Source: a virus (taxonomy: Duplodnaviria > Heunggongvirae > Uroviricota > Caudoviricetes). Taken from it: a stretch of DNA of 34,635 nt. Below are positions 14,615 to 34,508 of the stretch, in pieces. The notes under the pieces are model-generated. The model was not told the origin of the DNA. It saw only the letters and a list, made by a program, of their open reading frames with translations, and ran no database searches. The first letter of the stretch is position 1. Every line of letters starts with the position of its first letter. Position numbers and translations under genes: made by a program. The stretch lies in IMG/VR virus record IMGVR_UViG_3300027754_000043; one strand, written 5' to 3'.

Positions 14615-14797
14615 CTCTCTTGTTATTAAATTAATATATCTCTTACTTCCTATATATAAAGATAAGGTTTATTTGGTTCGGATCCTAGTCTTTTGTTAAC
14701 TTTGTTTAATCTTTTTTTACAATGCAAAGCCGGGACCTTTTGGATCCCGTGGGCTTATTAAGCGTCTTGCTGCTTTGCTATTAGGTGGTGGTAATGT

Positions 14798-15736
14798 CTA
14801 TGATGCTGAGATGATTTGCTCTGCTACTAACATTGTCGGATCATCAAAGCCCATTGCACATATTCTTGCTGCTTTAATAAATGATCTCAAGTTAATGTCT
14901 ACTCCGCCATATTTAGCATCTAACTCTTTCATTATCTCTAATGCTTGTTTCTTAGCCGCTAACGGTATGCGAGGCTCCATTGTCTCTAATAGCTGAGTCA
15001 TTCTTTGAAACATTTGCTGAGTATTCATTGTGATATCAGCTACAAAAGATCTACTGCGAATTGCACTATCTAATTTGCTTTGGTGAATATTAGAGATAAA
15101 GATGATTTTACCTGTGAACTCAAAGTGTGCTGGTATCGGTTCGCCAAATTCATCTTTAAGAGGCTTAGTAGAGATATAAGAGATCTTTCTAGTGTCATAG
15201 CTGTCTAATGCTGCTTTCAATATATTCACAGCATCATCGTCTTTGAATACAGAGTCACAATCATCTAACACAATAATCTTGTCAGAGTTTTGATAAAGTG
15301 TAATAAACAATCCGGCAGCGGTAGCTTTGCCTTTGAAGTGCTCAAAGTCATATGACTCTCTTAAACCTAAACCTTTAAGAGTTTCTTTTACTAGGTGAGT
15401 CTTACCTACTCCTGCCATGCCCGTTAACACTAATGATGGTTGGATCCCTTTACCTACCATTTTAGTTAAGCGCTCTAAATTAGAGAACATTACCTGTGGA
15501 TCTCTCGATTCAACTATTGATAAGAATGACATCTTAGCCGGACCGGAATGAGTAGGTGCATTAGTGTTAGCAACTCTTTGAACTCTGCCAGTACCGGTAA
15601 CGATCAATTTCTCGTTATTCGATTCTGCACTTCTCAATTGAACATCGCGGATCAAACCTGCTTGAGCAATTTCACCTGTGCTGATGTTTTTTGCTACTAA
15701 TTTCCCATTTACTCTTACTGCTTCGAATACATTCAT
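14798..15736 (-). CDS. AAA+ family ATPase
   Basis: Walker A GMAGVGKT, Walker B IIVLDDCD, sensor-1 FISN, Arg finger AIRSR. Confidence 0.9.
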   Translation of the reverse strand: MNVFEAVRVNGKLVAKNISTGEIAQAGLIRDVQLRSAESNNEKLIVTGTGRVQRVANTNAPTHSGPAKMSFLSIVESRDPQVMFSNLERLTKMVGKGIQPSLVLTGMAGVGKTHLVKETLKGLGLRESYDFEHFKGKATAAGLFITLYQNSDKIIVLDDCDSVFKDDDAVNILKAALDSYDTRKISYISTKPLKDEFGEPIPAHFEFTGKIIFISNIHQSKLDSAIRSRSFVADITMNTQQMFQRMTQLLETMEPRIPLAAKKQALEIMKELDAKYGGVDINLRSFIKAARICAMGFDDPTMLVAEQIISAS

Positions 15737-15846
15737 AATCTCTCTTTTTTAAATTAAACTATATCTCTTACTTCCTATATATAAAGATAAGCATTTTTAA
15801 TATAGGATCCTAATCTTTTTGCTACTTTGTTTAAAAAAAGTTTAAC

Positions 15847-16167
15847 TTATTTTTCTGATTTAAGTTGATCGAATACTCGGCCGATGCTGTGCATTATTTC
15901 ATTTACATCCAAATCAACTGTGCTTAACTCGATAGTTTTGCCGTCATAGCCCAATTCGAATTCCGCTGACTGTAAGTCGATAAACTCACTACCGCAACGA
16001 TCGAAGCAGTTTTCAATGGATCCCATGAGTGTATCACATAGTTCCCCAGTTAACACATTTGTTTCCGGCTCCGGATCGATCCCTTCGATAATTGCAATTA
16101 CTTGCTGTAATGAATAGAATGAATCTAATTGATTCTTCAATGCTGCTAATGTTTGTGCCTTTGTCAT
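15847..16167 (-). CDS. hypothetical acidic protein
   Basis: 106-aa ORF behind a class I promoter. Confidence 0.75.
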   Translation of the reverse strand: MTKAQTLAALKNQLDSFYSLQQVIAIIEGIDPEPETNVLTGELCDTLMGSIENCFDRCGSEFIDLQSAEFELGYDGKTIELSTVDLDVNEIMHSIGRVFDQLKSEK

Positions 16168-16255
16168 AATCTCTCTTTTTAAATTATTAATTAAATTTCC
16201 TATACTTAAAGATAAGCATTTTTAGGTTAGGATCCTACCTTTTTGTTAACTTTTT

Positions 16256-16369
16256 TTAATTAAAGATTATTGAGTAAACGAATGCCTCTCCGGCTAATGT
16301 TTGCTGTAAACGGATCATTTCTAATTGAGCTTGGCTCTTTGCTGGCGTAATTCTTTTAAAAGGTTTCAT
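16256..16369 (-). CDS. small hypothetical protein (37 aa, not in ORF track)
   Basis: MKPFKRITPAKSQAQLEMIRLQQTLAGEAFVYSIIFN with AAGAGATATG start context. Confidence 0.55.
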   Translation of the reverse strand: MKPFKRITPAKSQAQLEMIRLQQTLAGEAFVYSIIFN

Positions 16370-16374
16370 ATCTC

Positions 16375-16587
16375 TTATTTAGTTTGATTAATAAAACTTA
16401 ACTCTAATTCAATAATGCTTTCTAACAACGTCGGCAATAAAAACAAATCCATAACCGACTCAGCTGGTAGTGCTTTCATGCCATCTAGAATAATAGTGGT
16501 AGCAGCATCCTCAGACATATTACCTTTAACTTTTAAAGTCACAACCGCGCGACCGATAATCTGAAACATTTTCTCTCTTTTTGTCAT
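16375..16587 (-). CDS. hypothetical protein
   Basis: 70-aa ORF behind a class I promoter. Confidence 0.7.
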   Translation of the reverse strand: MTKREKMFQIIGRAVVTLKVKGNMSEDAATTIILDGMKALPAESVMDLFLLPTLLESIIELELSFINQTK

Positions 16588-16673
16588 AACCTTTAATTAT
16601 TAATTAAACTTCCTATACTTAAAGATAAGCATTTTTCACTTCGGATCCTAATCTTTTCCGAGAAAAGTTTCAA

Positions 16674-17414
16674 TTATTTATACTGCTCTAACAATTTAAT
16701 TCCTGGCAATGCTTTCAATGCATTCTCTGCTTGGCGAACCAATTGTCTAGCTCTCTCGCCAGTAACATTCAATTCCTCAGCAATTTGATCCATACACATT
16801 TCATATTCAAAGCCAATACCATAAAAGCGAGTGATAGCCTCTCTTTGTTTAGGTTTCAATTGTGATAATGCTCTTTGAACATCATATTTCAAATCAGCCG
16901 TGTCGCGAGCGGATTTACCAGATTCAGATGCTAAGTAGCGATCCGCATAGGTTTCTGTATTGTCGCCATCCCCAACCGGAGTAGAGATCGATTTAGTTGA
17001 ATATTCGGCTGTCTTAGTTAAATGAGATGGTACTCTCACTGTGCGTGACATATCATTCAAAGCTTTTTGGATTTCTGCGCGGATATACCATACAGCAAAG
17101 GTAATGAACTTGAACCCTCTGCTAGTGTCGAACTTCTCAGCTGCTTCAAACAATCCAATATTACCAAATCCAATCAAGTCCTCCAATCCGATACCCATTC
17201 CCTGATATTGTTTAGCTACTTGCAACACAAAGCGTAAATTGCTTTGAACCAATTGGTTTACTGCATCTCGGTTACCAGACTGTCCTGCTAATGCTAATTC
17301 AACCTCTTGAGCTTTAGACAACAACGGCGCCTTTTTTACTTCCTGGATATATCTCAATGTGCTTGCTACATCCGTTACAATTGCTCCTGTGGTTACATGA
17401 ATTTTCTTTGCCAT
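16674..17414 (-). CDS. RNA polymerase sigma70-family factor (RpoD/RpoS-like)
   Basis: Region 1.2 YIQEVKKAPLLSKAQEVEL, region 2 SNLRFVLQVAKQY...EDLI...GNIGL..AAEKFD..RGFKF, region 4 HTH DQIAEELNVTGERARQ. Confidence 0.95.
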   Translation of the reverse strand: MAKKIHVTTGAIVTDVASTLRYIQEVKKAPLLSKAQEVELALAGQSGNRDAVNQLVQSNLRFVLQVAKQYQGMGIGLEDLIGFGNIGLFEAAEKFDTSRGFKFITFAVWYIRAEIQKALNDMSRTVRVPSHLTKTAEYSTKSISTPVGDGDNTETYADRYLASESGKSARDTADLKYDVQRALSQLKPKQREAITRFYGIGFEYEMCMDQIAEELNVTGERARQLVRQAENALKALPGIKLLEQYK

Positions 17415-17484
17415 CTTTATAACTTTTTAATTTATTAAATATAAGGTTTATTTGAATAGGATCCTAATCTTTTAGGATCTTTTT

Positions 17485-17640
17485 TTAACACCATTTGATT
17501 TTTAACTTTTGGCGAACTTGATCCACATCAGCACCTGTAATCTCATTTTCACATTGACCTACTAGGTTTTCTAACTCATCAATTGTCGTAACTCTCTCCG
17601 CTTTAGCTAATGCTAATAACTCTTTAAAACCTTTTGTCAT
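17485..17640 (-). CDS. small hypothetical protein (51 aa, not in ORF track)
   Basis: MTKGFKELLALAKAERVTTIDELENLVGQCENEITGADVDQVRQKLKIKWC behind the class I promoter at 17666. Confidence 0.7.
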   Translation of the reverse strand: MTKGFKELLALAKAERVTTIDELENLVGQCENEITGADVDQVRQKLKIKWC

Positions 17641-17731
17641 AATCTCTATCATTTAAATTAATACTTAAATATAAGCATTTTTCACTTCGGATCCTAGTCT
17701 TTTAGGAACTTTTTTTAAACTTTGTTTTGGG

Positions 17732-17861
17732 TAGTCAGGACAGGATTCGAACCTGTATGATAACTTATGAGCAGGACTTGCACCGGGTTTTTCGAGGTTA
17801 CTCTGCGTTATCTTTAATGTTAACCTTTATTCATAGCGTCTACCAATTCCGCCACCTGACT
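17732..17861 (-). ncRNA. tRNA-like RNA, copy 1 (130 nt; no canonical anticodon arm)
   Basis: Acceptor AGTCAGG/CCTGACT, Leu-type D arm GCG-GAATTGGTAGA-CGC, T arm ACAGG-TTCGAAT-CCTGT, central ~78-nt insert. Confidence 0.8.
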
Positions 17862-17867
17862 ATTTTA

Positions 17868-18113
17868 TTACTTAAACTTCTTACCAGTTACTGCATTGAT
17901 CGACATACGAGGCGATGAAGCCAATTTAAGCGCTTGTGCTGCTGCATACTCTGCTCTTTTGTCTTTGATACCTTTTTCTGCTGAACGAGCATCTAAACCC
18001 ATTGCTACTGCCACTGCATCCGATCCAGATGCTGCGGTTCTTGCTTCTTTGCCAAATCCTGCGATGATCCCGTCTTGCTTAACAAATCCTGAATTTCTTC
18101 TTCCAATACTCAT
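17868..18113 (-). CDS. hypothetical basic Ala-rich protein
   Basis: Start reassigned to ATG 18113 (MSIGRRN) with GAGAGTT context; class I promoter at 18157. Confidence 0.7.
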   Translation of the reverse strand: MSIGRRNSGFVKQDGIIAGFGKEARTAASGSDAVAVAMGLDARSAEKGIKDKRAEYAAAQALKLASSPRMSINAVTGKKFK

Positions 18114-18195
18114 AACTCTCAAATTTTAAATTAATAACCTTATTTCTTTCTATACTTAAAGATAAGCATTTTTCACTTCATATCCTAGTCTTTTC

Positions 18196-18588
18196 TCAGA
18201 AAAGTTTCGAAAATGTTTCAGCTCTCTTTAAGCACTCAAAGTGACCTACCGAGTTCCGTCCCCATATTTCTGCTTGGCCGGAATGGCTGCATTTAGGAAT
18301 AACTGTGAATAAAACTTCATTCTCATTGCATATACGGAAATCGTCATATAGTGATCCAGCACCCGGACAATTATTTTTAAAGAACACATATGTGCTTAAT
18401 ATATCGATCTCCGGATTGGCTGCAATGAACTTTTTTACCTTAGGGAACAATGCCTTTGCTTTGCGCTCTAATGATGAATCTTTGCAGAACCAATCATAAA
18501 AGTTAAAACAATCATTTTCCGATCCTTCACTGTCAATAATTCTGCCTGATGCAAATGCATTCAATTGTTCTGCTAATGTCGTTTTCAT
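18196..18588 (-). CDS. hypothetical phage protein (FYDWFC...FFKNNCP...LYDDFRI)
   Basis: 130-aa ORF behind a class I promoter. Confidence 0.8.
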   Translation of the reverse strand: MKTTLAEQLNAFASGRIIDSEGSENDCFNFYDWFCKDSSLERKAKALFPKVKKFIAANPEIDILSTYVFFKNNCPGAGSLYDDFRICNENEVLFTVIPKCSHSGQAEIWGRNSVGHFECLKRAETFSKLF

Positions 18589-18693
18589 ATTCTCTCGGTT
18601 TAAAATTAAGGACCATTCCCTAATTGCTATACTTAAAGATAAGCATTTTTCACTTCGGATCCTAATCTTTTCGCAACTTTGTTTCAGAAAAGT

Positions 18694-19047
18694 TTATGGT
18701 TGAATAACCCATTCCTCAGTGGATCGATCCCATTGCGCTACTGTGGTTGAGTTACACGGATAGCCATGGCCAGCTACTTCTACATTCTCAATACCCATCG
18801 GATGATCCGGACCATTCCAATCCACTGCATCTACATCCAATTCTACATAACCTCGTCGGTCACCTCTCTCATTGAATAATAATACATGCACAAACCATCT
18901 CGGCTTGTTATCCCAATTGTACCAATCGATACTGCTAACCATTCCTTCCTCAGCTTCCTGAATCATCCCTAACTCTTTCATACGAGTCGTTAAGTCCTGA
19001 TCGAAATAATGCATTTGTGTCTCTGACGGTCTAAAATCTTCTCTCAT
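18694..19047 (-). CDS. hypothetical protein
   Basis: 117-aa ORF behind a class I promoter. Confidence 0.75.
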   Translation of the reverse strand: MREDFRPSETQMHYFDQDLTTRMKELGMIQEAEEGMVSSIDWYNWDNKPRWFVHVLLFNERGDRRGYVELDVDAVDWNGPDHPMGIENVEVAGHGYPCNSTTVAQWDRSTEEWVIQP

Positions 19048-19126
19048 CTCTTTAAATTTAAATTAATATCTCTTTCTTAAAGATAAGCATTTTTCACTTC
19101 ATATCCTAGTCTTTTGTTAACTTTGT

Positions 19127-19348
19127 TTAAACTTTGTGCTGCTCTTTAATGCAATGCTTAATGTCGCCGATGGTACGGATCCCTTGCCTGGAATTGTCAA
19201 TTGCAATAACCTTAGTGGAATCCTTTAACAATTCAGCCAATGGATCGGTAAAGGTTAATTTGACTTGTCCATTGCCGATTCCAACTCGTCTAGCTATTGG
19301 CAGTACTTCGCCGGTGCTAGGTATTCTCACTCCGAATGTTGTGCTCAT
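19127..19348 (-). CDS. hypothetical protein
   Basis: 73-aa ORF, GAGATATG start context. Confidence 0.7.
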   Translation of the reverse strand: MSTTFGVRIPSTGEVLPIARRVGIGNGQVKLTFTDPLAELLKDSTKVIAIDNSRQGIRTIGDIKHCIKEQHKV

Positions 19349-19364
19349 ATCTCAGTTTTAATAA

Positions 19365-19571
19365 TTAAAATAAATCAAATTTCCCGTCTACGAATAATAT
19401 GGACTCTCCAGCATCACAGCCGGCTACATCGATATTGCAATATCCATCATTTGGATTACATAAATTATCCATGTCTATTATTACAAACTGGATCCCGCTC
19501 TCCTCTAATAATGTGATAAAGGCTGCTGCTTTATTTGCCTTTGCTAATTTGACAATCTCTTCATTTCTCAT
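19365..19571 (-). CDS. hypothetical protein
   Basis: 68-aa ORF, AAGAGATATG start context. Confidence 0.7.
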   Translation of the reverse strand: MRNEEIVKLAKANKAAAFITLLEESGIQFVIIDMDNLCNPNDGYCNIDVAGCDAGESILFVDGKFDLF

Positions 19572-19576
19572 ATCTC

Positions 19577-19705
19577 TTATTTATTTGCTATAGCACCTAA
19601 TGTGCCTGACATTAATATTATTAAACCAAATCCATTTCCAAATGCTAACATTATACCTCCTAGCATCATTGAGGAGATCCCTATAATAAATCCTACGTTT
19701 CTCAT
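19577..19705 (-). CDS. small two-helix membrane protein (42 aa, not in ORF track)
   Basis: MRNVGFIIGISSMMLGGIMLAFGNGFGLIILMSGTLGAIANK fills the gap. Confidence 0.6.
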   Translation of the reverse strand: MRNVGFIIGISSMMLGGIMLAFGNGFGLIILMSGTLGAIANK

Positions 19706-19715
19706 TTGTCTAGTT

Positions 19716-19958
19716 TTAAAATTGAAAACAACCCGGGTTAGTTTTACTTGGCTTAGCTATCCTAGTCGCAATATATCTGCGATTGAAGTCGTTAAATTTG
19801 GAATTAAATTTATAACTAACCCAATAATGTTTACCATTAATGGCTCCTAAAATAATTGTGGTATTTTTACCCCAAATTTCTGTTGCGATGCGACTTGCTA
19901 TTGCCGGCTCGAAGAACTCTGCTAACTCTTCCAATTGTAATCTTGCTTTAACTCTCAT
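19716..19958 (-). CDS. hypothetical protein
   Basis: 80-aa ORF behind a class I promoter. Confidence 0.7.
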   Translation of the reverse strand: MRVKARLQLEELAEFFEPAIASRIATEIWGKNTTIILGAINGKHYWVSYKFNSKFNDFNRRYIATRIAKPSKTNPGCFQF

Positions 19959-20069
19959 ATCTCTCTTTTTTAAATTAAATTATTATTCCCTTTCCCTATA
20001 CTTAAAGATAAGCATTTTTCTCCCCGGATCCTAATCTTTTACCAGAAAAGTTTCAGAAAAGTTTACTGG

Positions 20070-20450
20070 CTAATTAAAGCCAATAAATCCTTTTTCTAAT
20101 TCAATTTCTAATTCCTCAGCTATTTCCTTAAGTCTGAAGCTAGCAGCGCTTTCAAGCTCTTCCTCTACTATCACAGATACGTCATGCACTGTGTATCCAA
20201 ATCCAAATCCATAACATGTAACTGCACATTGGATTCGCTTCATTTCTGGCGTTGCCTGATCTTTGAATTCGGCATCTAACATGTCCTCCGGATCATCGAA
20301 ATCAGTAGCACAATCAATCATTGCCGCCTGCCACAGTGAGTTAACTTCATCAACTACTACTCGCGCCACTTCTTCATTGTGGGCATACATCTCTTTGCTC
20401 CATGGCTTTGTGATTGTGATCCCGTACTCAACTTTTGCTTCTTTTTTCAT
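20070..20450 (-). CDS. hypothetical acidic protein
   Basis: 126-aa ORF behind a class I promoter. Confidence 0.75.
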   Translation of the reverse strand: MKKEAKVEYGITITKPWSKEMYAHNEEVARVVVDEVNSLWQAAMIDCATDFDDPEDMLDAEFKDQATPEMKRIQCAVTCYGFGFGYTVHDVSVIVEEELESAASFRLKEIAEELEIELEKGFIGFN

Positions 20451-20515
20451 ATCTCTTTCTTTTTATTAAAGATAAGCATTTTTCTTTTATCGTCCTAGTC
20501 TTTTGTTAACTTTGT

Positions 20516-20746
20516 TTAAACTTTTCTAGAATACCGGCTAGCATCAAACTCTTTAATTTCCCATTGTGCTTTAAGCACTTTTGGATGATCCTGATCGAAT
20601 CTAACACCAGTATCGTTACGGGTATTGTGGAAGTGTAAATAACGTCCTCGTTCTGACATTCCTAAATACTTCATACTCGGATAAGTAGTATCGATACACT
20701 GAACGATATATACATTGCCTTCTCTTAATAAATGTGTTCCTCTCAT
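20516..20746 (-). CDS. hypothetical protein
   Basis: 76-aa ORF, AAGAGATATG start context. Confidence 0.7.
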   Translation of the reverse strand: MRGTHLLREGNVYIVQCIDTTYPSMKYLGMSERGRYLHFHNTRNDTGVRFDQDHPKVLKAQWEIKEFDASRYSRKV

Positions 20747-20761
20747 ATCTCTTGTTTTAAA

Positions 20762-20836
20762 TTAATTTTCTAAATCCTCTCCTAGTGAAAATACTACTGC
20801 CAGTATTAATACTATTAATATTATAAAGCCCTGCAT
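20762..20836 (-). CDS. single-TM microprotein (24 aa, not in ORF track)
   Basis: MQGFIILIVLILAVVFSLGEDLEN; TAATG stop/start overlap with the upstream gene. Confidence 0.5.
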   Translation of the reverse strand: MQGFIILIVLILAVVFSLGEDLEN

Positions 20837-21078
20837 TAACCTCGCATTTTGCTAATACCTGAGTGAGCTATCTCAGCAATAATGTCAATTAATATGCGAG
20901 GATCGACCTCATTTATAAACGTGCAACCAGCACCGCCATAACCATATTCAGCCACTAACACGCCATCTACAAATATTTGTGCTAGATCCTCATCTAAGAA
21001 TGTTCTCACTTTAACTACTCGATCTTGCACCTCAAACTGTGATGCTACTGCGTTTTCTAAATTTCTCATATATTTCAT
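20836..21078 (-). CDS. hypothetical protein
   Basis: Start reassigned to ATG 21078 (MKYMRN), since the longer start lies inside the promoter repeat. Confidence 0.7.
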   Translation of the reverse strand: MKYMRNLENAVASQFEVQDRVVKVRTFLDEDLAQIFVDGVLVAEYGYGGAGCTFINEVDPRILIDIIAEIAHSGISKMRG

Positions 21079-21144
21079 ATATCTCTTATTTTTTATAAAT
21101 TTAAGCATTTTATATTTATCGTCCTAGCAAATTAGCAACTTTGT

Positions 21145-21324
21145 TTAAATTAATTTAACTAATGTATCATTATCTAAATTCCAGATCGTACCGCTTACAG
21201 TTGCTACGTCGACAGTATACTTTTTCTTTTTTACTACTGTCAAGTGATATATCTCTATATTGCCGCGATTGTGTAATCCCAATTCTACTACTTGACCTTT
21301 TGCTACTTCTCCTACTTCTATCAT
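21145..21324 (-). CDS. small hypothetical protein (59 aa, not in ORF track)
   Basis: MIEVGEVAKGQVVELGLHNRGNIEIYHLTVVKKKKYTVDVATVSGTIWNLDNDTLVKLI behind the class I promoter at 21360. Confidence 0.7.
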   Translation of the reverse strand: MIEVGEVAKGQVVELGLHNRGNIEIYHLTVVKKKKYTVDVATVSGTIWNLDNDTLVKLI

Positions 21325-21432
21325 ATCTCTCTTTATTTAATTAATAAACTTCCTATACTTAAAGATAAGCATTTTTCACTTCACGTCCTAGTCTTTTCAC
21401 AGAAAAGTTTCAACAAAAGTAAACATTTATTT

Positions 21433-21462
21433 CAGTAGTAAAGGATCCCGGTAAGGATCCCT
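21433..21462 (-). terminator. putative terminator closing the RNA operon
   Basis: Minus AGGGATCC-TTACCG-GGATCCTT then TACTACTG, echoing the ACTG tail of the other terminators; short U tract. Confidence 0.5.
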
Positions 21463-21476
21463 AACTAGATAAGAGT

Positions 21477-21529
21477 GGCCAGAATGAGAAGAGATATGAT
21501 AAGAGAGAGATATGAAACTCATTCTGGCC
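21477..21529 (-). ncRNA. candidate antisense/decoy hairpin RNA
   Basis: Perfect 12-bp stem GGCCAGAATGAG/CTCATTCTGGCC; 29-nt loop complementary to the AGAGATATGA start contexts. Confidence 0.6.
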
Positions 21530-21630
21530 GATAAGAAATGGATCGATCCAACGATCCTGCAATTATGATCCCGACGCCTTACACGGCTCTCCAATTGTTT
21601 CAGTGGTTACCGATCCACCGGGATACTATG

Positions 21631-21703
21631 TAGCGCGGGCTAGACTCGAACTAGCGATCTTCAGGTTATGAGCCTGCCGAGATACCAACTTCTCCACCGC
21701 ACA
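21631..21703 (-). tRNA. tRNA-Met(CAT), initiator-like
   Basis: Cloverleaf with anticodon loop CTCATAA, T arm GCTAG-TTCGAGT-CTAGC, unpaired 1:72. Confidence 0.85.
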
Positions 21704-21710
21704 ATATATT

Positions 21711-21775
21711 ATAGAGCCGGAGCCGGTAGGCGAACTGAAAGCTTAATTCCAGGCGCCTGTGGTTGCCGGCTCTAT
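21711..21775 (-). ncRNA. candidate long-hairpin RNA
   Basis: ATAGAGCCGG/CCGGCTCTAT closing stem with inner AGGCG/CGCCT and CTG/CAG helices; GC-rich; just downstream of a promoter motif. Confidence 0.5.
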
Positions 21776-21864
21776 GTTTAACCTAAATGTCTTTATGCCT
21801 TATTTCTATTTATATAATAGCAAATCTAAATCTAAAATCCAACCTAAATATCAACTATTTATTG

Positions 21865-22080
21865 TCTAAATATAAACCGTCTAAAAGCAGCCTACCTGGC
21901 CTAAATATAGCGTGTATATGCTGCGTCTAAAAATAGCCTGGATATGGTCTAAAAATCAATCCGGCATATTGCTCTAAAAATAGGATCCACTTCGTCTAAA
22001 AATAGATCCCACATATTATGCTCTAAAAATAGGATCCGGATTGGTCTAAAAATAAATGCTGAATAATGATCTAAAAATCA
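21865..22080. repeat. array of ten TCTAAAAATAG-like short repeats
   Basis: Units at 21865, 21880, 21900, 21926, 21948, 21973, 21995, 22022, 22045 and 22070 with variable spacers. Confidence 0.9.
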
Positions 22081-22275
22081 ATCAGCATCTCCCTCTATAA
22101 TATCCACACCAATTATATCAATGTCAAAGTCAAAGCAATCCGCTTCGAAGTCTACATCACCTTCACATATACAATCATGAGCCAGCTCCTTAGCTTCTTC
22201 TTCGGATGCGGCCTCCACCTCCACCGCAGCATTCTCGGTAATGGTTCTTTCTAAATATACTATGTACTTTGCCAT
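22078..22275 (-). CDS. DpnD/PcfM-like small acidic protein
   Basis: KYIVYLERTITENAAVEVEAASEEEAKE matches the VEVEAxSEEEA pattern; has its own promoter motif at 22290-22320. Confidence 0.7.
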   Translation of the reverse strand: MAKYIVYLERTITENAAVEVEAASEEEAKELAHDCICEGDVDFEADCFDFDIDIIGVDIIEGDAD

Positions 22276-22324
22276 TGTGTTTTTTATTTATAATATGAAA
22301 TATACTGCTAAAAACCAACCTCAA

Positions 22325-22578
22325 TCTAAAAATACGTTACTCCGTATAGCTAGCGAACCGAATGTACAAGTTCTAAAAGTGCGATTCTTCTAAAAATAGC
22401 CTACCCGGATCCTGCTAGAAATAGCCTAAAAATAGCTGGGTAATGGTGATCCTGGCCTAGAAATAGCCTGATCGTTCTAAAAATCAATGCTACGATACTC
22501 TCCGTATAGCTAGCAATCCGACCAGAAACCTCGTTATAGTGCGCCTAGTTCGGTTTTGCGGTTACTCCGTATAGCTAG
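22325..22578. repeat. second repeat cluster: CTA(A/G)AAATAG units plus three CTCCGTATAGCTAG copies
   Basis: GTTACTCCGTATAGCTAG at 22336 and 22561, core CTCCGTATAGCTAG at 22500; several CTAAAAATAG/CTAGAAATAG units between 22325 and 22486. Confidence 0.85.
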
Positions 22579-23146
22579 TGTTCTCCATGATCCCAATGTA
22601 TTACCTTTAATCCCATACACTAATATAAGAATAATATTTCACAGTACCAACCTTTCCGGCAACTTTATTTCGCGTAAACTGGAAAAATAATTGAGGTTTT
22701 TCTTGGATATGTGGAAAACCTTTTTACGCACTTTTAACGCACTCGACACCGTATCTGGATTACTGATATTCGTTACCAGGCGATAAAGAGTCTACGCCCC
22801 CCGTAAACATTGTATAGGGAGGGGTATATATATAACCTCTCTGTCCTGATGCTCCTAGACACACCACCACCCACAACCTCCACACCCGTATCTCTGAATA
22901 ATAAATGCATCTGAACAATTTAACTATATTCATGTTTACACCATAGACACCAGGTGACCTGAGCCACGACCTAATAACGTACTGAGCATACGTTGTCTTT
23001 TTTGTGCTATTTGTGTACGTATTAACTTTATTACTCTATATACTCGATGTATTGCTTTATGTATTAGTATTCGTGTTCGTTGCGTTATGCTTATAAACAT
23101 TCTAGTTCTATCCGGGAAATTGCAGGTTTACAAATTAGTCCGGAGG

Positions 23147-23329
23147 TTATGGTAAGTATTTAACTATTAACACCATTCCCATCAAAATTGAGTATATTGT
23201 GGTCATTGCAACTAACAAGGTCCACCCTTTCATATCTTCATCATAAACGTTATAATGTCCATATATTTTTTTAAACCTCAACAATCCGAAGATTGCATAC
23301 AATATGCTGATAATTGTTAGTGTGATCAT
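23147..23329 (-). CDS. small membrane protein
   Basis: 60 aa, two hydrophobic segments. Confidence 0.65.
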   Translation of the reverse strand: MITLTIISILYAIFGLLRFKKIYGHYNVYDEDMKGWTLLVAMTTIYSILMGMVLIVKYLP

Positions 23330-24503: not shown

Positions 24504-24716
24504 TTATTCTGATTTAAAAGTTTTATCATAATAGTCTTTTGCCTCCCCATTTCTACTCTTCCTAAATGGTGGACTATAAAATCCATTAATATGAGCATCT
24601 TTTATCTGCTCTTTCTCCATTGCCGTAGCCTGTTCGAGAATAGCATACCAAGTTAACTTGTCTATCGGTGTTTCCCACAATCGTTGAAACAACCATTCCG
24701 TTGCTGTCTGTTTCAT
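24504..24716 (-). CDS. hypothetical phage protein (MKQTAxEWL family)
   Basis: MKQTATEWL...MEKEQIKDA...YYDKTFKSE. Confidence 0.75.
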   Translation of the reverse strand: MKQTATEWLFQRLWETPIDKLTWYAILEQATAMEKEQIKDAHINGFYSPPFRKSRNGEAKDYYDKTFKSE

Positions 24717-26640: not shown

Positions 26641-26900
26641 ATTACTTCTTTTTTAAATGTATCGTTATAATATTTATCTCCGTACTCAATACCATCAGTA
26701 CCAAACATATCTTGGTGGCATTGTGCTGCAGCTTGGACTATGTCATCCTTCTCTAGTTCTAACATTGATTCACATTGGCCAGTAAGCCAAGTTAATGCTA
26801 ATTCATATCCGGCTGTATACTCTTCGGATTTATATAACTCAGGCAATATAGTTTGTCTATATTCAATTGCCTCTAGTAAATGTTGAATTGCTGTTTTCAT
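26637..26900 (-). CDS. hypothetical protein, related to 24504..24716
   Basis: Start reassigned to ATG 26900 (MKTAIQ); LEKDDIVQA...YYNDTFK. Confidence 0.7.
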   Translation of the reverse strand: MKTAIQHLLEAIEYRQTILPELYKSEEYTAGYELALTWLTGQCESMLELEKDDIVQAAAQCHQDMFGTDGIEYGDKYYNDTFKKEVI

Positions 26901-30344: not shown

Positions 30345-30534
30345 TGTTATATAGTTCTATCATTGCATCATAATCTTCTCTATTGATTGCGATACATACA
30401 TCATCAATTGTTACAAACACATCTGTTGCAAACTCCCTTATTATATTTAACTTTGAAGGATCCACCTGTATTGTCATGTACACCGATTCATTTGCAAACC
30501 GAGCTCGTACTGGATATTTTTTATAATTCATCAT
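30316..30534 (-). CDS. hypothetical protein
   Basis: 72-aa ORF. Confidence 0.6.
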   Translation of the reverse strand: MMNYKKYPVRARFANESVYMTIQVDPSKLNIIREFATDVFVTIDDVCIAINREDYDAMIELYNNGNEKHIKH

Positions 30535-30895
30535 GATTATATAAAGTATATGTTGAATTTTTTGTTTTAAATTTTAATTCCGAATCTGTTTTCTCAACAA
30601 TCTCAACAATTTCAGTGGTCAACCATTCATATGATGCTTGTCCTAGGATTGAATATGGACCAAACATACAAGAAAAATCTACTGCTGGTTCATCATGTAA
30701 TTGTTTAGCTCTACTAGTTTCACGATCCCATTCAACCCATTTAACTAAATTAGAATAGTGAGTTGAATTGTCATGTTCGCGTACCAATGAGTATTTGAAT
30801 ACATGAGTACTATCACATACATTGCATACATTGTCATTCAATTTCTCGCGACATTCTGTTTTAGCGTCGCAACTTCTACAATATCTTGTTACCAT
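30521..30895 (-). CDS. hypothetical protein with N-terminal Zn ribbon
   Basis: CRSC...CNVC, then a FKTKNSTYTL domain. Confidence 0.75.
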   Translation of the reverse strand: MVTRYCRSCDAKTECREKLNDNVCNVCDSTHVFKYSLVREHDNSTHYSNLVKWVEWDRETSRAKQLHDEPAVDFSCMFGPYSILGQASYEWLTTEIVEIVEKTDSELKFKTKNSTYTLYNHDEL

Positions 30896-32245: not shown

Positions 32246-33157
32246 TTAATTTGTTGTTTGCATGAACTGGTCAACAACTGATTGGAACCTTGCTGGAACT
32301 TCAATTTTTAAATTAATGATGTTCTCAATCTCTTTTAGTCTAGCTTCTTCCCAAACCAAATGAGCTTCTTTGTATGCGTTATTCCATTCACGTAATGCCT
32401 TTTCGTGTGCATCTAATATGGTTTGGTTGTATTCATTACACTGAGCTTGCTCATCTCCGTTAACCTTAGCACGGCGTGCATTTTCTGCTGTAACCGCATT
32501 CTTAATCTTAGATTTAAAATAGTTAACACGTTGCTCGTATTTACGATGCAATGCAGACAATTCTTCATGCAACTCTGATAAATACTCCGGAGTATGATGA
32601 GGCGTAACAACTACTGGAGATTTCTTCCCTACCTCTAACTCAATCCATTCCAATGTTTTGATATTAGGTAACTCAGATCTCAAACGATCCAATATTCCAT
32701 TTTTGTGAATGAATTGTCCAATGTGAGCAGCAAAAGCTTCTGCCTCAATAAACTCATTGTACTCAGCAACAGATAACTGATCCCAGGCCCATTCCTCATT
32801 TACATTGTATTCTGAAACAGGAGTTTTAAGTCCACCTCGTAATGGTCTTTCAATCTCATATTCAAAGTCTGCTTCCTTTTGTGTTTGGATCAATAGATCC
32901 TTAGCTTTAATGTTTTCCATTAAAAATGCTTGAGCTGCATGCAAACGAGATTTCTCTAACAACAATTCAACTACATTGCTAGGTAATGGATTACCTACGG
33001 TCTCAACATAATCAGTATCACCGTACTTAACTGTTTTTTGGATATTGTTAACTACTGATAACTTGTTTTGAATGTCTCGGCTTCTTTGATTGCAAAGGTT
33101 GCTAATTGATTGTGCCTGACTTAAAGATAATCCGTTTTTCGCTAATGAGTTTTTCAT
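32246..33157 (-). CDS. conserved hypothetical helical/coiled-coil phage protein
   Basis: 303 aa; GLSLSQAQSISNLCNQ and EAFAAHIGQFIH motifs; class II promoter at 33226. Confidence 0.8.
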   Translation of the reverse strand: MKNSLAKNGLSLSQAQSISNLCNQRSRDIQNKLSVVNNIQKTVKYGDTDYVETVGNPLPSNVVELLLEKSRLHAAQAFLMENIKAKDLLIQTQKEADFEYEIERPLRGGLKTPVSEYNVNEEWAWDQLSVAEYNEFIEAEAFAAHIGQFIHKNGILDRLRSELPNIKTLEWIELEVGKKSPVVVTPHHTPEYLSELHEELSALHRKYEQRVNYFKSKIKNAVTAENARRAKVNGDEQAQCNEYNQTILDAHEKALREWNNAYKEAHLVWEEARLKEIENIINLKIEVPARFQSVVDQFMQTTN

Positions 33158-33249
33158 ACTTTTTATTTTTTACGTTAATTTTTTAAATTTTTATATTAAT
33201 AATATGTGAAAATAACATATACTATCCAACCTTTATTTTATATATTTTG

Positions 33250-33323
33250 TGGCCCATCCAGGACTTGAACCTGGGACTTTCGCATTATGAGTGCGCTACT
33301 CTAACCAACTGAGTTAAAGGACC
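33250..33323 (-). tRNA. tRNA-Ile2(CAT) (lysidine type; Met not excluded)
   Basis: Cloverleaf GGTCCTT...CTCATAA...ATGGGCCA resembling ileX-type tRNAs. Confidence 0.85.
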
Positions 33324-33384
33324 TTCTAGTTTTTAAAACCCATCTATATTCGAGGTAAGGAAACTCCACTTATTGTTTTTTGCG

Positions 33385-33514
33385 TAGCCAGGACAGGATT
33401 CGAACCTGTATTCTTGTTACAATCTTTCGACCAAGATTTGCCTATACACACATGATGTATAATGCAGCGTCTACCAACGAGCGAGGACACCCCACTCCAT
33501 TCCGCCACCTGACT
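33385..33514 (-). ncRNA. tRNA-like RNA, copy 2 (130 nt; D-loop hairpin insert, no canonical anticodon arm)
   Basis: Same AGTCAGGTGGCGGAAT...TGGTAGACGCT...TACAGGTTCGAATCCTGTCCTGRCTA scaffold as 17732..17861. Confidence 0.8.
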
Positions 33515-33569
33515 CGGACTCGAACCGTTGAAAACACACACCTTGCAGTGCCAACAAAACCATGACCCC
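33515..33569 (-). pseudogene. degenerate, 3'-truncated tRNA remnant (possibly Cys, GCA)
   Basis: GGGGTCATGG...CTGCAAG...CGG-TTCGAGT-CCG running directly into the tRNA-like RNA. Confidence 0.4.
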
Positions 33570-33587
33570 AGAGTTGTTATTGTCGAG

Positions 33588-33658
33588 TAGCGGAGCGTGG
33601 AATCGAACCACTCCTTTGGGTTATGAGCCCATTATGCAACCAGATACACCATACCGCT
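33588..33658 (-). tRNA. degenerate tRNA-Met(CAT), initiator-like
   Basis: GGG-CTCATAA-CCC anticodon arm; mismatches in the acceptor and T stems. Confidence 0.6.
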
Positions 33659-33663
33659 ATATG

Positions 33664-33735
33664 AATTACCCATAGGACTCGAACCTACATTCTCCGGCTG
33701 TGACAGCCGACGCATTGATTTATGCTATAAGTAAT
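33664..33735 (-). tRNA. atypical/pseudo tRNA (Asp-derived CTGTCAC loop, TCA at the stem apex)
   Basis: Acceptor ATTACTT/GGGTAAT, D stem GCAT/ATGC without GG, T arm GTAGG-TTCGAGT-CCTAT. Confidence 0.5.
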
Positions 33736-33830
33736 TATTCAAGAACAATAAACAGAAATTAGTGTCGACAAATCTCCTTAGGCAATATGTTTATTTTCTT
33801 GTTAGGAATGGTTAATTACTCCATTCTTTG

Positions 33831-33902
33831 TATTCCGTACGGGAATCGAACCCGTGCCTCTGCCGTGAAAGGGCAGCGTGTTAACCGCTTCACTAACGGA
33901 AC
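33831..33902 (-). tRNA. tRNA-Glu(TTC)
   Basis: Canonical cloverleaf, CTGCC-CTTTCAC-GGCAG. Confidence 0.95.
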
Positions 33903-34057
33903 GTGTAGCAATATGGATGATTAAACCTAACGAACTATTGCTATATCCGATAATATGTTTCTCGCTACACATTATAAAAACGCTATTGATTTCGACCCAA
34001 TAGTTAAGACGGCATGTTTCTAGATACATGATATCATAATGAGTAATCAACTCATCG

Positions 34058-34139
34058 TGGAGCCGGCAGGATTCGAACCTGCGAACTCAAAGAGGGCAGA
34101 TTTACAGTCTGCTGGCATTAACCACTCGCCCACGTCTCC
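34058..34139 (-). tRNA. tRNA-Tyr(GTA)
   Basis: GCAGA-CTGTAAA-TCTGC with long variable arm. Confidence 0.95.
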
Positions 34140-34182
34140 ATTATAAAATGTTTTGCTCTTTTTAAACTAACTGAAGGTGTAC

Positions 34183-34212
34183 TGCCGACAGTATTGGATT
34201 TGAACCAATATC
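34183..34212 (-). pseudogene. orphan tRNA 3' fragment (T arm + acceptor strand)
   Basis: ATTGG-TTCAAAT-CCAAT-ACTGTCGGC with no matching 5' half. Confidence 0.5.
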
Positions 34213-34219
34213 TTTTTTG

Positions 34220-34291
34220 CGGTCCATGACGGTTACGATCCGTCTACTCTACCGTGACAGGGTAGGATGATAGCCACTTCACCAATGGACC
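34220..34291 (-). tRNA. tRNA-Asp(GTC), atypical T loop
   Basis: CTACC-CTGTCAC-GGTAG, G73; T loop ATCGTAA. Confidence 0.9.
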
Positions 34292-34326
34292 TGATGATTG
34301 CCTAGCGGTTACTAGGACTTAAACCG

Positions 34327-34399
34327 TGGAGCTGATGAGATTCGAACCCACATCCTTTACCTTGCAAAGGTAACGCTCAGCCAATTGAGCTACAGCCCC
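34327..34399 (-). tRNA. tRNA-Ala(TGC)
   Basis: G3:U70, TTACC-TTTGCAA-GGTAA. Confidence 0.95.
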
Positions 34400-34426
34400 A
34401 TATAAGATAAGTGAATTTATCTTTTG

Positions 34427-34508
34427 TACTCAAGGAGAGACTCGAACTCTCACGCCTTGCGGCAATAGATCCTAAATCTACCGTGACTACCAATTCCACC
34501 ACCCAAGC
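34427..34508 (-). tRNA. tRNA-Leu(TAG)
   Basis: GTAGA-TTTAGGA-TCTAT with variable arm GCC-GCAA-GGC. Confidence 0.95.

Follow-up and report, generated by a model that had tools for sequence, protein, structure and literature searches.

A near-invariant tRNA-Leu-like shell with exchangeable inserts defines a large family of putatively non-decoding viral RNAs

Phages T5 and T4 encode tRNA-like stable RNAs that have stood unexplained since the 1970s-80s; to our knowledge, those of T5 have not been described as one shell with many exchangeable cargos. The use of a tRNA body to recruit processing enzymes, and to protect or release an attached RNA, is familiar from the engineered 'tRNA scaffold', from the tRNA-miRNA genes of gammaherpesviruses and from the mascRNA of MALAT1, which are laboratory, eukaryotic or herpesviral cases and in no instance a phage family that mounts hundreds of cargos on one shell. 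Here, we analysed a stretch of 34,635 nucleotides (nt) from a tailed virus (Caudoviricetes; IMG/VR record IMGVR_UViG_3300027754_000043), referred to below as the window, which contains two such tRNA-like loci, copy 1 and copy 2. In both, a shell made of an acceptor stem, a D arm, a T arm and a discriminator base surrounds an insert, or cargo, that stands in place of the anticodon arm. With a probability of about 0.55, we consider both loci to be non-decoding genes derived from tRNA-Leu, which would give rise to stable carrier RNAs of about 130 nt through tRNA processing, with the insert as the working part. Our literature searches, within the portions of the sources that were accessible, returned no description of the shell family.

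By their build, the two copies fit the type of T5 RNA1, being apparently phage-encoded elements of a tRNA cluster with tRNA-like arms and a large insert that is not an anticodon arm. T5 RNA1 and RNA2 (NC_005859, misc_RNA 30501-30644 and 32959-33083, respectively) are labelled in GenBank as 'tRNA-like stable RNA with unknown functions', and what is said here of their stability rests on that label. RNA1 lies in a tRNA region; besides its acceptor stem (6 of 7 pairs, read by eye) and T arm, it has a D arm of Leu type (GCCGGAAUUGGUAGACGG) and an insert of roughly 85 nt, whereas RNA2, with the T arm CAGGUUCGAAUCCUG and an insertion in the D region, is a looser relative. The T5 RNAs differ from the window copies in shell sequence: only the D-arm string AAUUGGUAGACG and the T-loop consensus are held in common, and the Rfam tRNA model, which reaches both copies, misses both T5 RNAs at E < 0.1. 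The species 1 RNA of T4 (rnaC, NC_000866 70908-71046) is likewise a small stable RNA adjoining a tRNA cluster, with a canonical T arm (CCGGGUUCGAAUCCCGG), but it has no Leu-type D arm, no acceptor stem could be clearly traced, and it gave no match to the Rfam tRNA model (E < 0.1). Class II tRNA-Leu shares with the shell the type of D arm, a 7-bp acceptor stem, a 5-bp T stem, the UUCGAAU loop and the discriminator A; the shell differs from it in having neither an anticodon arm nor an ordinary variable arm. Lak megaphages carry oversized genes in their tRNA sets, with inserts conserved across cohorts, which the accessible part of the source reads as intron-bearing tRNAs on the basis of eukaryotic tRNAscan settings (Devoto et al., 10.1101/356790). 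These genes resemble the shell family by description, and the inserts read there as introns contrast with those of the shell family, for which a shuffle control marks such calls as artefacts.

Pairwise alignment of the two loci (Table 1) gave identical 5' ends (AGTCAGGTGGCGGAAT; AGUCAGG-UG-GCGG-AAU) and identical T arms (ACAGGTTCGAATCCTGT) on either side of unrelated middles, and acceptor 3' strands that were one base apart, with U3-A70 in copy 1 and U3-G70 in copy 2. The Rfam tRNA model (RF00005, gathering score 29), run with permissive filters, spanned positions 1-71 end to end on both copies, including when the whole window was scanned. The alignment required a 60-nt insertion within a 4-bp 'anticodon stem' in copy 1 and, in copy 2, a 26-nt insertion in the D loop together with 52 nt replacing the entire anticodon arm. 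In both copies, acceptor, D arm, T arm and discriminator followed one another in cloverleaf order, and the acceptor stem, the Leu-type D arm, the T arm, the discriminator A and the U before the T stem were intact, without an anticodon arm. The preliminary description, which had noticed two loci with a common acceptor stem, a Leu-type D arm, an identical T arm and unrelated middles without an anticodon arm, was therefore confirmed by both alignments. The D arm of copy 1 is called Leu-type for its likeness to those of the window's own tRNA-Leu and of Escherichia coli tRNA-Leu. A C was found directly 3' of the discriminator in both copies, as in every tRNA checked in the array around copy 2, and the string GGTTCGAATCC occurred 10 times in the window with at most one mismatch, as against 0.27 occurrences expected.

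Table 1. Coordinates of the two tRNA-shell elements, their parts and a nearby motif in the window.
Feature	Position	Strand	Details
Copy 1, whole tRNA-shell RNA gene	17732..17861	-	130 nt including discriminator A at 17732; Rfam tRNA model 1-71, 37.6 bits, E 1.2e-6
Copy 1, acceptor 5' strand	17855..17861	-	AGUCAGG; pairs with 17733-17739 (CCUGACU)
Copy 1, Leu-type D arm	17836..17852	-	GCGG-AAUUGGUAG-ACGC; from sequence and Rfam alignment
Copy 1, cargo (conserved structured RNA motif)	17757..17834	-	Match to covariance model R1 at 17755-17834, 93.9 bits
Copy 1, T arm	17740..17756	-	ACAGG-UUCGAAU-CCUGU; from pairwise and Rfam alignment
Copy 2, whole tRNA-shell RNA gene	33385..33514	-	130 nt including discriminator; Rfam tRNA 29.6 bits, E 1.6e-4
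Copy 2, D-loop hairpin insert	33479..33497	-	8 bp, GAGUGGGG/UGU/CCUCGCUC; in the minimum-free-energy fold
Copy 2, cargo	33410..33465	-	Two hairpins in place of anticodon and variable arms; predicted fold
Copy 2, T arm	33393..33409	-	Same sequence as in copy 1
Copy 2, acceptor 3' strand	33386..33392	-	CCUGGCU; yields U3-G70
Repeated intergenic motif ACTAGGATCCGAA	17686..17698	-	Directly downstream of copy 1, upstream of sigma-factor gene

To collect relatives, IMG/VR was scanned for the pattern AGGTGGCGGAAT, gap, CAGGTTCGAATCCTG, with three ranges of gap length and an estimated total of about 950 stored stretches. Gaps of 44-74 nt returned 128 loci (about 500 stretches estimated), those of 75-105 nt 119 loci (about 360 estimated) and those of 106-136 nt 94 loci, this last scan being complete (94 stretches). 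Overall, 313 unique elements were obtained, the middles of which ranged from about 20 to 120 nt and fell into 228 sequence clusters, 181 of them singletons. The suspicion that the two loci were part of a tRNA-derived family with swappable inserts was thus borne out, all the more as a relative of this virus keeps the shell with other inserts. The length of exactly 130 nt reported for both copies was correct as a measurement; since lengths in the family run continuously from 70 to 176 nt, the agreement is a coincidence and carries no significance.

The shell was much more strongly conserved than its flanks. Positions outside the search pattern were conserved at 86-98% among the 313 members, with AGTC at positions 1-4 in 92-98% and TCCTGACTAC at the 3' end in 86-99%, while the C after the discriminator and the U before the T stem were each present in 95%. 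A looser finder, used for counting variants of the acceptor and T stems, yielded 408 elements; the acceptor pair AGTCAGG/CCTGACT was found in 291 of these and the discriminator A in 368. Among the 57 acceptor variants, some were fully doubly compensated (GGACAGG/CCTGTCC, AGTGAGG/CCTCACT), and 25 T-stem variants were counted, for example GCAGG/CCTGC in 22 cases. One element (L394) combined the exact copy 1 cargo with a shell in which an A-U of the T stem was replaced by G-C. Because unpatterned positions are conserved and the rare variants keep pairing by double changes, the shell is, as judged from this comparison, under selection as RNA.

These features make it highly improbable that the loci are DNA-level features or debris, that is, tRNA pseudogenes or tRNA-like sites of integration or recombination. 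Phage attachment sites often copy tRNA 3' ends, which would suit such an origin; here, the two halves of the shell have both been retained and show covariation as RNA helices, helices within the cargos covary as well, and up to 11 copies occur on one genome fragment. Comparison of the sequences rather points to a large modular family of viral RNAs, presumably non-decoding and derived from tRNA, in which one near-invariant shell is combined with many unrelated folded inserts.

The distribution of the elements was consistent with exchange of cargos between relatives. The window's sigma factor had relatives at 62-77% identity on eight viral contigs, and no shell element was found beside the sigma-factor gene in any of the eight. 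One of these relatives, 100 kb long (sigma factor 73% identical), had two elements 14.8 kb apart, as compared with 15.6 kb in the window, with the same shell, other cargos and a shifted slot; one lay near a tRNA pair, and the other followed a 316-amino-acid (aa) ATPase gene and preceded a similar repeated motif. On a viral fragment of 62 kb, 11 shell 3' ends were found within 6 kb, among 24 ordinary tRNAs including tRNA-Leu(UAA) and tRNA-Leu(UAG). In a 7-kb region of this fragment (L511, G003:C1:15800-22800), which holds these 24 tRNAs and 8-11 shell elements, three elements were labelled by ARAGORN as odd tRNAs, two of them as Pro(agg) and Ile(aat), the third bearing an 'anticodon' of 4 bases.

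An exact scan for the 24-nt 3' shell in one genome each of 185,579 species returned 20 loci, all on contigs of metagenome-assembled genomes and 11 of them with Bacteroidota-type labels. One locus consisted of the 3' part only and one contained Ns; every readable one carried a cargo, with 79-198 nt. No genome in this set carried the exact 3' shell as a normal tRNA, and the shell is thus, as far as such a scan can tell, not a cell's tRNA. Against cultured phages (50,697 records), blastn with both loci and their flanks gave nothing at 1e-5 and, at E ≤ 10, only T-arm matches to ordinary tRNAs and weak matches to the inserts. The best cultured-phage match to the 3' shell, in Enterococcus phage vB_Edu_21C1, was rejected, as it is an ordinary 74-nt tRNA-Gln.

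Neither copy was called as a tRNA by ARAGORN, and neither had the 5-bp anticodon stem, 7-nt loop and Leu anticodon of a decoding tRNA. Under default settings, ARAGORN called 32 of the 313 members, with mixed identities, and the single normal-looking tRNA-Leu among these calls had a different acceptor stem. In intron mode, calls were made for 250 of the 313 real members and for 245, 243 and 228 of 313 when the inserts had been shuffled, with anticodons of every kind in both cases and 20-odd identities appearing. As shuffled inserts were called about as often as real ones, the 'intron' calls are artefacts for the shell family. In the shortest members (70-71 nt), the middle consisted of a tetraloop hairpin only.

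Sequences from two DNA and two RNA-library runs were mapped on positions 15000-21000. In the DNA runs, depth at the ends of the shell was in excess by about 8-fold, and 'joints' were found at 17757->17836. Those joints with a listed bridging sequence carried other letters and therefore stem from different loci with different cargos; with one exception, the joints listed came from DNA runs, and none of those listed was a joined form without an insert.

That the loci are interrupted tRNA-Leu genes, with inserts removed as introns by some splicing route as proposed for the Lak genes, is accordingly very unlikely, even though a preprint, as far as its accessible part shows, interprets oversized tRNA genes of phages as intron-bearing (10.1101/356790). 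The intron-mode calls, together with the 4-bp anticodon stem that Infernal aligned around the copy 1 insert, would agree with this view, but the calls were matched by the shuffles, their 20-odd identities did not converge, and the 70-71-nt members have nothing except a tetraloop hairpin to remove. The Infernal stem is itself probably not real, because a covarying helix of the cargo, P4, takes bases of its 3' half. No Rfam group I intron match was obtained in the window or on either copy (the bulge-helix-bulge motif was not searched for), and every joint listed with a bridging sequence carried another insert. Group I introns are much longer than inserts of 52-60 nt. Moreover, two ordinary tRNA-Leu genes are already present on the 62-kb fragment that bears the 11 shell 3' ends. 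An intron-bearing tRNA was therefore rejected as a candidate, removal of the insert restoring no consistent anticodon identity. The sequence evidence thus runs against splicing to ordinary tRNAs, the outcome named beforehand as fatal to the idea of a family of tRNA mimics: there is no consistent anticodon, and joined forms carry other inserts, in DNA runs too. In practice, the shell genes either escape tRNA finders or are annotated wrongly, as tRNAs with an intron and a random identity.

Two other classes of RNA were also considered. Transfer-messenger RNA (tmRNA) was rejected, since ARAGORN, which also seeks tmRNA, found none, and the acceptor has A1-U72 with U3-A70 or U3-G70, not G3-U70. The bacterial Y RNA-like YrlA (RF02553) had no match in the window at E ≤ 1.

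The cargo of copy 1 was first recognized elsewhere through a weak blastn match to intergenic spots in the Cellulophaga phages Nekkels_1, phi10:1, phi19:1 and phi19:3. In the two that were read, Nekkels_1 and phi10:1, the core stands on its own downstream of a phosphoesterase gene, with a terminator-like hairpin behind it. A pattern scan (AAGGTTAA...GTAACCTYGA) returned 119 loci, or 93 unique regions, many of which were chance matches inside coding sequence. The motif itself occurred in three topologies: as a cargo of the shell (21 unique sequences), free-standing with the order unchanged (12 unique sequences, including those of the Cellulophaga phages) and circularly permuted, opened at a variable hairpin and closed at helix P2 (16 loci). 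Of the 16 permuted loci, 10 had a tRNA on one or both sides, at a distance of 16-23 nt from the core. In several of them (L375, L463, L399, L403, L410, L379 and others), the permuted motif nearly exactly fills the gaps between phage tRNA genes, so that processing of the tRNAs on either side would set it free.

The structure that we infer for this motif comprises a 5' tail (AAAGGUUAAY), in which AGGUUA would pair with UAACCU, followed by helix P2, helix P4 and the variable hairpin. The AGGUUA/UAACCU pairing was invariant in all 21 sequences. Helix P2, GAUAAC/GUUAUC in copy 1, had a different sequence in almost every free-standing member (GAAUCC/GGAUUC, GAGACAC/GUGUCUC, GCAUAAU/AUUAUGC and others), and the 3-bp helix P4 appeared as GAG/CUC (copy 1), CAG/CUG or CUG/CAG. 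In a duplex test of P2 in the 12 free-standing members, cognate strands gave -8.58 kcal/mol, compared with -2.95 kcal/mol for non-cognate ones. A covariance model built from shell-borne members recovered the free-standing ones (22-60 bits) and found a single copy in the window. On the alignment guided by this model, which leans towards the model structure because it was fitted to it, 95.7% of the cells formed pairs, versus 67.5% in shuffles (0 of 500 reached the observed value) and 28-50% when the partner was slid; changes on both sides were seen in 8 of the 9 motif pairs. With a MAFFT alignment as input, RNAalifold returned no helix other than the invariant AGGUUA/UAACCU one, as the 3' parts were misaligned. 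The second T-loop-like sequence previously pointed out in copy 1, GGTGCAAGTCC, did not hold up: it corresponds to the variable mini-hairpin, where homologues have GTTAAGAC, ATAAGTAT or GTAAAGTC.

The copy 1 insert had no non-tRNA match in Rfam 15 at E ≤ 10, the two weak non-tRNA hits falling in its flanks, and no Rfam 15 match was obtained at E ≤ 1 for free-standing or permuted relatives (16 loci). Judging from these comparisons, the copy 1 cargo is an autonomous conserved RNA motif that exists without the shell. The shell, flanking tRNAs and a terminator-like hairpin of its own look like three ways to define the ends of the same RNA. As the motif is autonomous and occurs in three topologies, the function of this cargo can be tested apart from its carrier.

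Copy 2 contributed a second module. The 8-bp hairpin noticed earlier in its D loop is part of the minimum-free-energy fold and recurs with compensatory changes in other contigs. A complete scan found the pattern in 18 viral loci, three of which (L495, L499, L508) had the identical hairpin. Most of the 18 shared a GGAG...CUC base, and the inner pairs covaried (UGGGG/CCUCG, GAUGG/CCAUC, CGUGG/CCACG). The hairpin sits on at least 10 different cargos, including the copy 1 motif (L507), and can be regarded, from its recurrence and covariation, as a second recurrent, covarying module.

The reading we favour, in which the shell carries the insert, takes its main argument from the copy 1 motif: because the same motif occurs with three end-defining contexts, the shell would be a handle for maturation and stability. 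Both copies would be co-transcribed with neighbouring genes; RNase P of the host would cut the 5' end, and 3' trimming and completion of the CCA would finish the other end, so that the shell would give the RNA defined ends and stability. The cargos would then act by binding a protein or a ligand and not by decoding. The identical halves of the shell might double as homology arms for the exchange of cargos between phages. The genomic setting supports this interpretation, as elements occur among ordinary tRNAs, both in the array around copy 2 and on the 62-kb fragment. Of the roles listed in the preliminary description, that of an RNase P-processed carrier for a variable RNA cargo fitted best, since the copy 1 cargo is autonomous and occurs without the shell, either with a terminator-like hairpin or between tRNAs. 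A decoy for anticodon nucleases, another role on that list, is unlikely, as such enzymes would find no anticodon loop to cleave.

Several results weigh against this carrier reading. The folding energy of 309 cargos was only modestly lower than that of shuffles (mean z -0.68), and that of the copy 1 cargo gave z -0.45. For the copy 2 cargo, neither a comparison of shared 9-mers with the 313 elements nor the pattern scan of viral contigs gave a relative. The two RNA-library runs had small shares and, for shell sequence, nothing longer than short contigs, which speaks neither for nor against transcription; DNA can also be present in libraries of this kind. No gene for RNA handling or processing was found among the 20 window proteins scanned with Pfam, and PHROGs likewise gave none. 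In 80 loci with 1.5-kb flanks, enrichment of neighbouring genes was limited to small proteins, in 10 and 9 loci, and no RNA enzyme or evident partner was recognisable among these neighbour families, for which no search of a family library was made. Finally, any tRNA body would serve if processing and stability were all that counted, so that the carrier model alone does not account for a single Leu-type shell being kept almost unchanged; this is suggestive of a specific partner, such as leucyl-tRNA synthetase (LeuRS) or a protein of the phage, or else of concerted evolution. Candidate explanations are specific recognition, for instance by LeuRS, and exchange or gene conversion via the identical arms.

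In a view that we regard as rather unlikely, the RNA would be a tRNA mimic, leucylated and/or CCA-tailed, that serves as a decoy or sponge for factors recognising the acceptor/T-arm half of tRNAs, such as LeuRS, EF-Tu or defence toxins modifying tRNA 3' ends, with the insert being secondary or having a tuning role. A73, the GG of the D loop and A14/A15 are among the identity elements of E. coli LeuRS, and the shell keeps all of these together with the U before the T stem (A73 in 368 of 408 elements, the U in 95% of members). The almost unchanged Leu-type shell likewise suggests recognition by a specific protein, and several copies per genome would suit titration. This mimicry leaves unexplained, however, why the inserts are diverse, structured and, in part, conserved as motifs of their own, and why the copy 1 motif occurs without the shell in other phages. 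In addition, the D-loop hairpin of copy 2 lies in the elbow region, where it might disturb contacts with the synthetase.

It is less likely still that the elements serve to make the 3' ends of mRNAs, with each element ending a transcription unit, RNase P freeing the upstream mRNA and the released RNA being a by-product. At some eukaryotic and organellar transcripts, tRNA-like elements do recruit RNase P. The arrangement around copy 1 would suit such a role, since the element starts 6 nt past the stop codon of an 84-aa open reading frame (ORF; 17868-18122) and is followed by the repeated promoter-like motif; in the 100-kb relative, an element similarly follows the 316-aa ORF and precedes the same motif. 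Many elements, including copy 2 and those of the 62-kb fragment, nevertheless lie in tRNA arrays without an upstream ORF, and conserved, covarying cargos would not be needed for making 3' ends.

If the shell is indeed a carrier, the family would be a natural version of the laboratory 'tRNA scaffold', and its cargos a catalogue of phage RNA tools. In either case, the old puzzle of the T5 and T4 tRNA-like stable RNAs is widened to a large modular family with one conserved shell and hundreds of cargos. A broader proposal, which we put forward only tentatively, is that phages of many lineages have one tRNA-Leu chassis in common, on which hundreds of RNA modules, including the pseudoknotted copy 1 motif and the D-loop hairpins, would be matured by the host, traded by recombination in the shell and used as an arsenal against host factors or defences. 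Such an arsenal would be the exchangeable counterpart, at the RNA level, of the cassettes of protein anti-defence genes.

The window has a G+C content of about 33%, and almost every gene lies on one strand. Its proteins, as identified with Pfam and PHROGs, include a tail lysozyme with a peptidoglycan-binding domain, a glucosaminidase, a sigma factor, an AAA/STAND-like ATPase and a metallophosphoesterase; most window proteins had no PHROG match. Sequencing runs labelled as freshwater or lake metagenomes contained the window sequence, the best of them with 0.96 of the sampled words.

The position of the motif ACTAGGATCCGAA, between copy 1 and the sigma-factor gene, suggests that it is promoter-like. 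In the window, a motif of the form A(C/T)TAGGATCCGAA had 21 matches with at most three mismatches, versus 6.3 expected, and is probably a phage promoter or regulatory site. It was observed upstream of many small genes in the block from 14.6 to 21.4 kb, at sites that were all on the minus strand (14677-14689, 16640-16652, 17686-17698, 18177-18189, 18654-18666, 19098-19110, 20023-20035 and 21380-21392). Scans for promoter and terminator consensus sequences around both copies gave no more than chance level.

The small proteins found within 1.5 kb of shell elements in 10 of the 80 loci (L003, L005, L013, L015, L019, L021, L047, L058, L059 and L078) belong to a family of about 65-85 aa with K-T-A-V-E-W-L at the N-terminus and Y-Y-N-K-T-F at the C-terminus. 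The family was also encoded twice in the window, at 24507-24716 and 26646-26774, both on the minus strand.

With default filters, ARAGORN and Rfam found nine ordinary tRNAs in the window and missed the loci of both copies. Copy 2 lies inside a tRNA array (33249-34508) that showed several further peculiarities, all on the minus strand. A 73-nt tRNA at 33663-33735 has the anticodon UCA, which would read UGA, and was labelled 'SeC' by ARAGORN (Rfam tRNA, 29.9 bits). Two orphan pieces resemble T arms: one (GGTTCGAGTCCG; 33515-33586) directly adjoins copy 2 on its 5' side, and the other, at about 34190-34215, is a 7-bp hairpin closed by a UUCAAAU loop that stands alone in the interval from tRNA-Asp to tRNA-Tyr; neither was called by ARAGORN or Rfam. 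The 154 nt that separate tRNA-Glu from tRNA-Tyr (33903-34056), free of tRNA and Rfam calls and of long ORFs, may encode a further small RNA. Outside the array, about 2 kb around a tRNA-Met (21631-21703), from 21100 to 23150 and covered by the Rfam scan only, contain just two ORFs of at most 65 aa and have a slightly raised G+C content.

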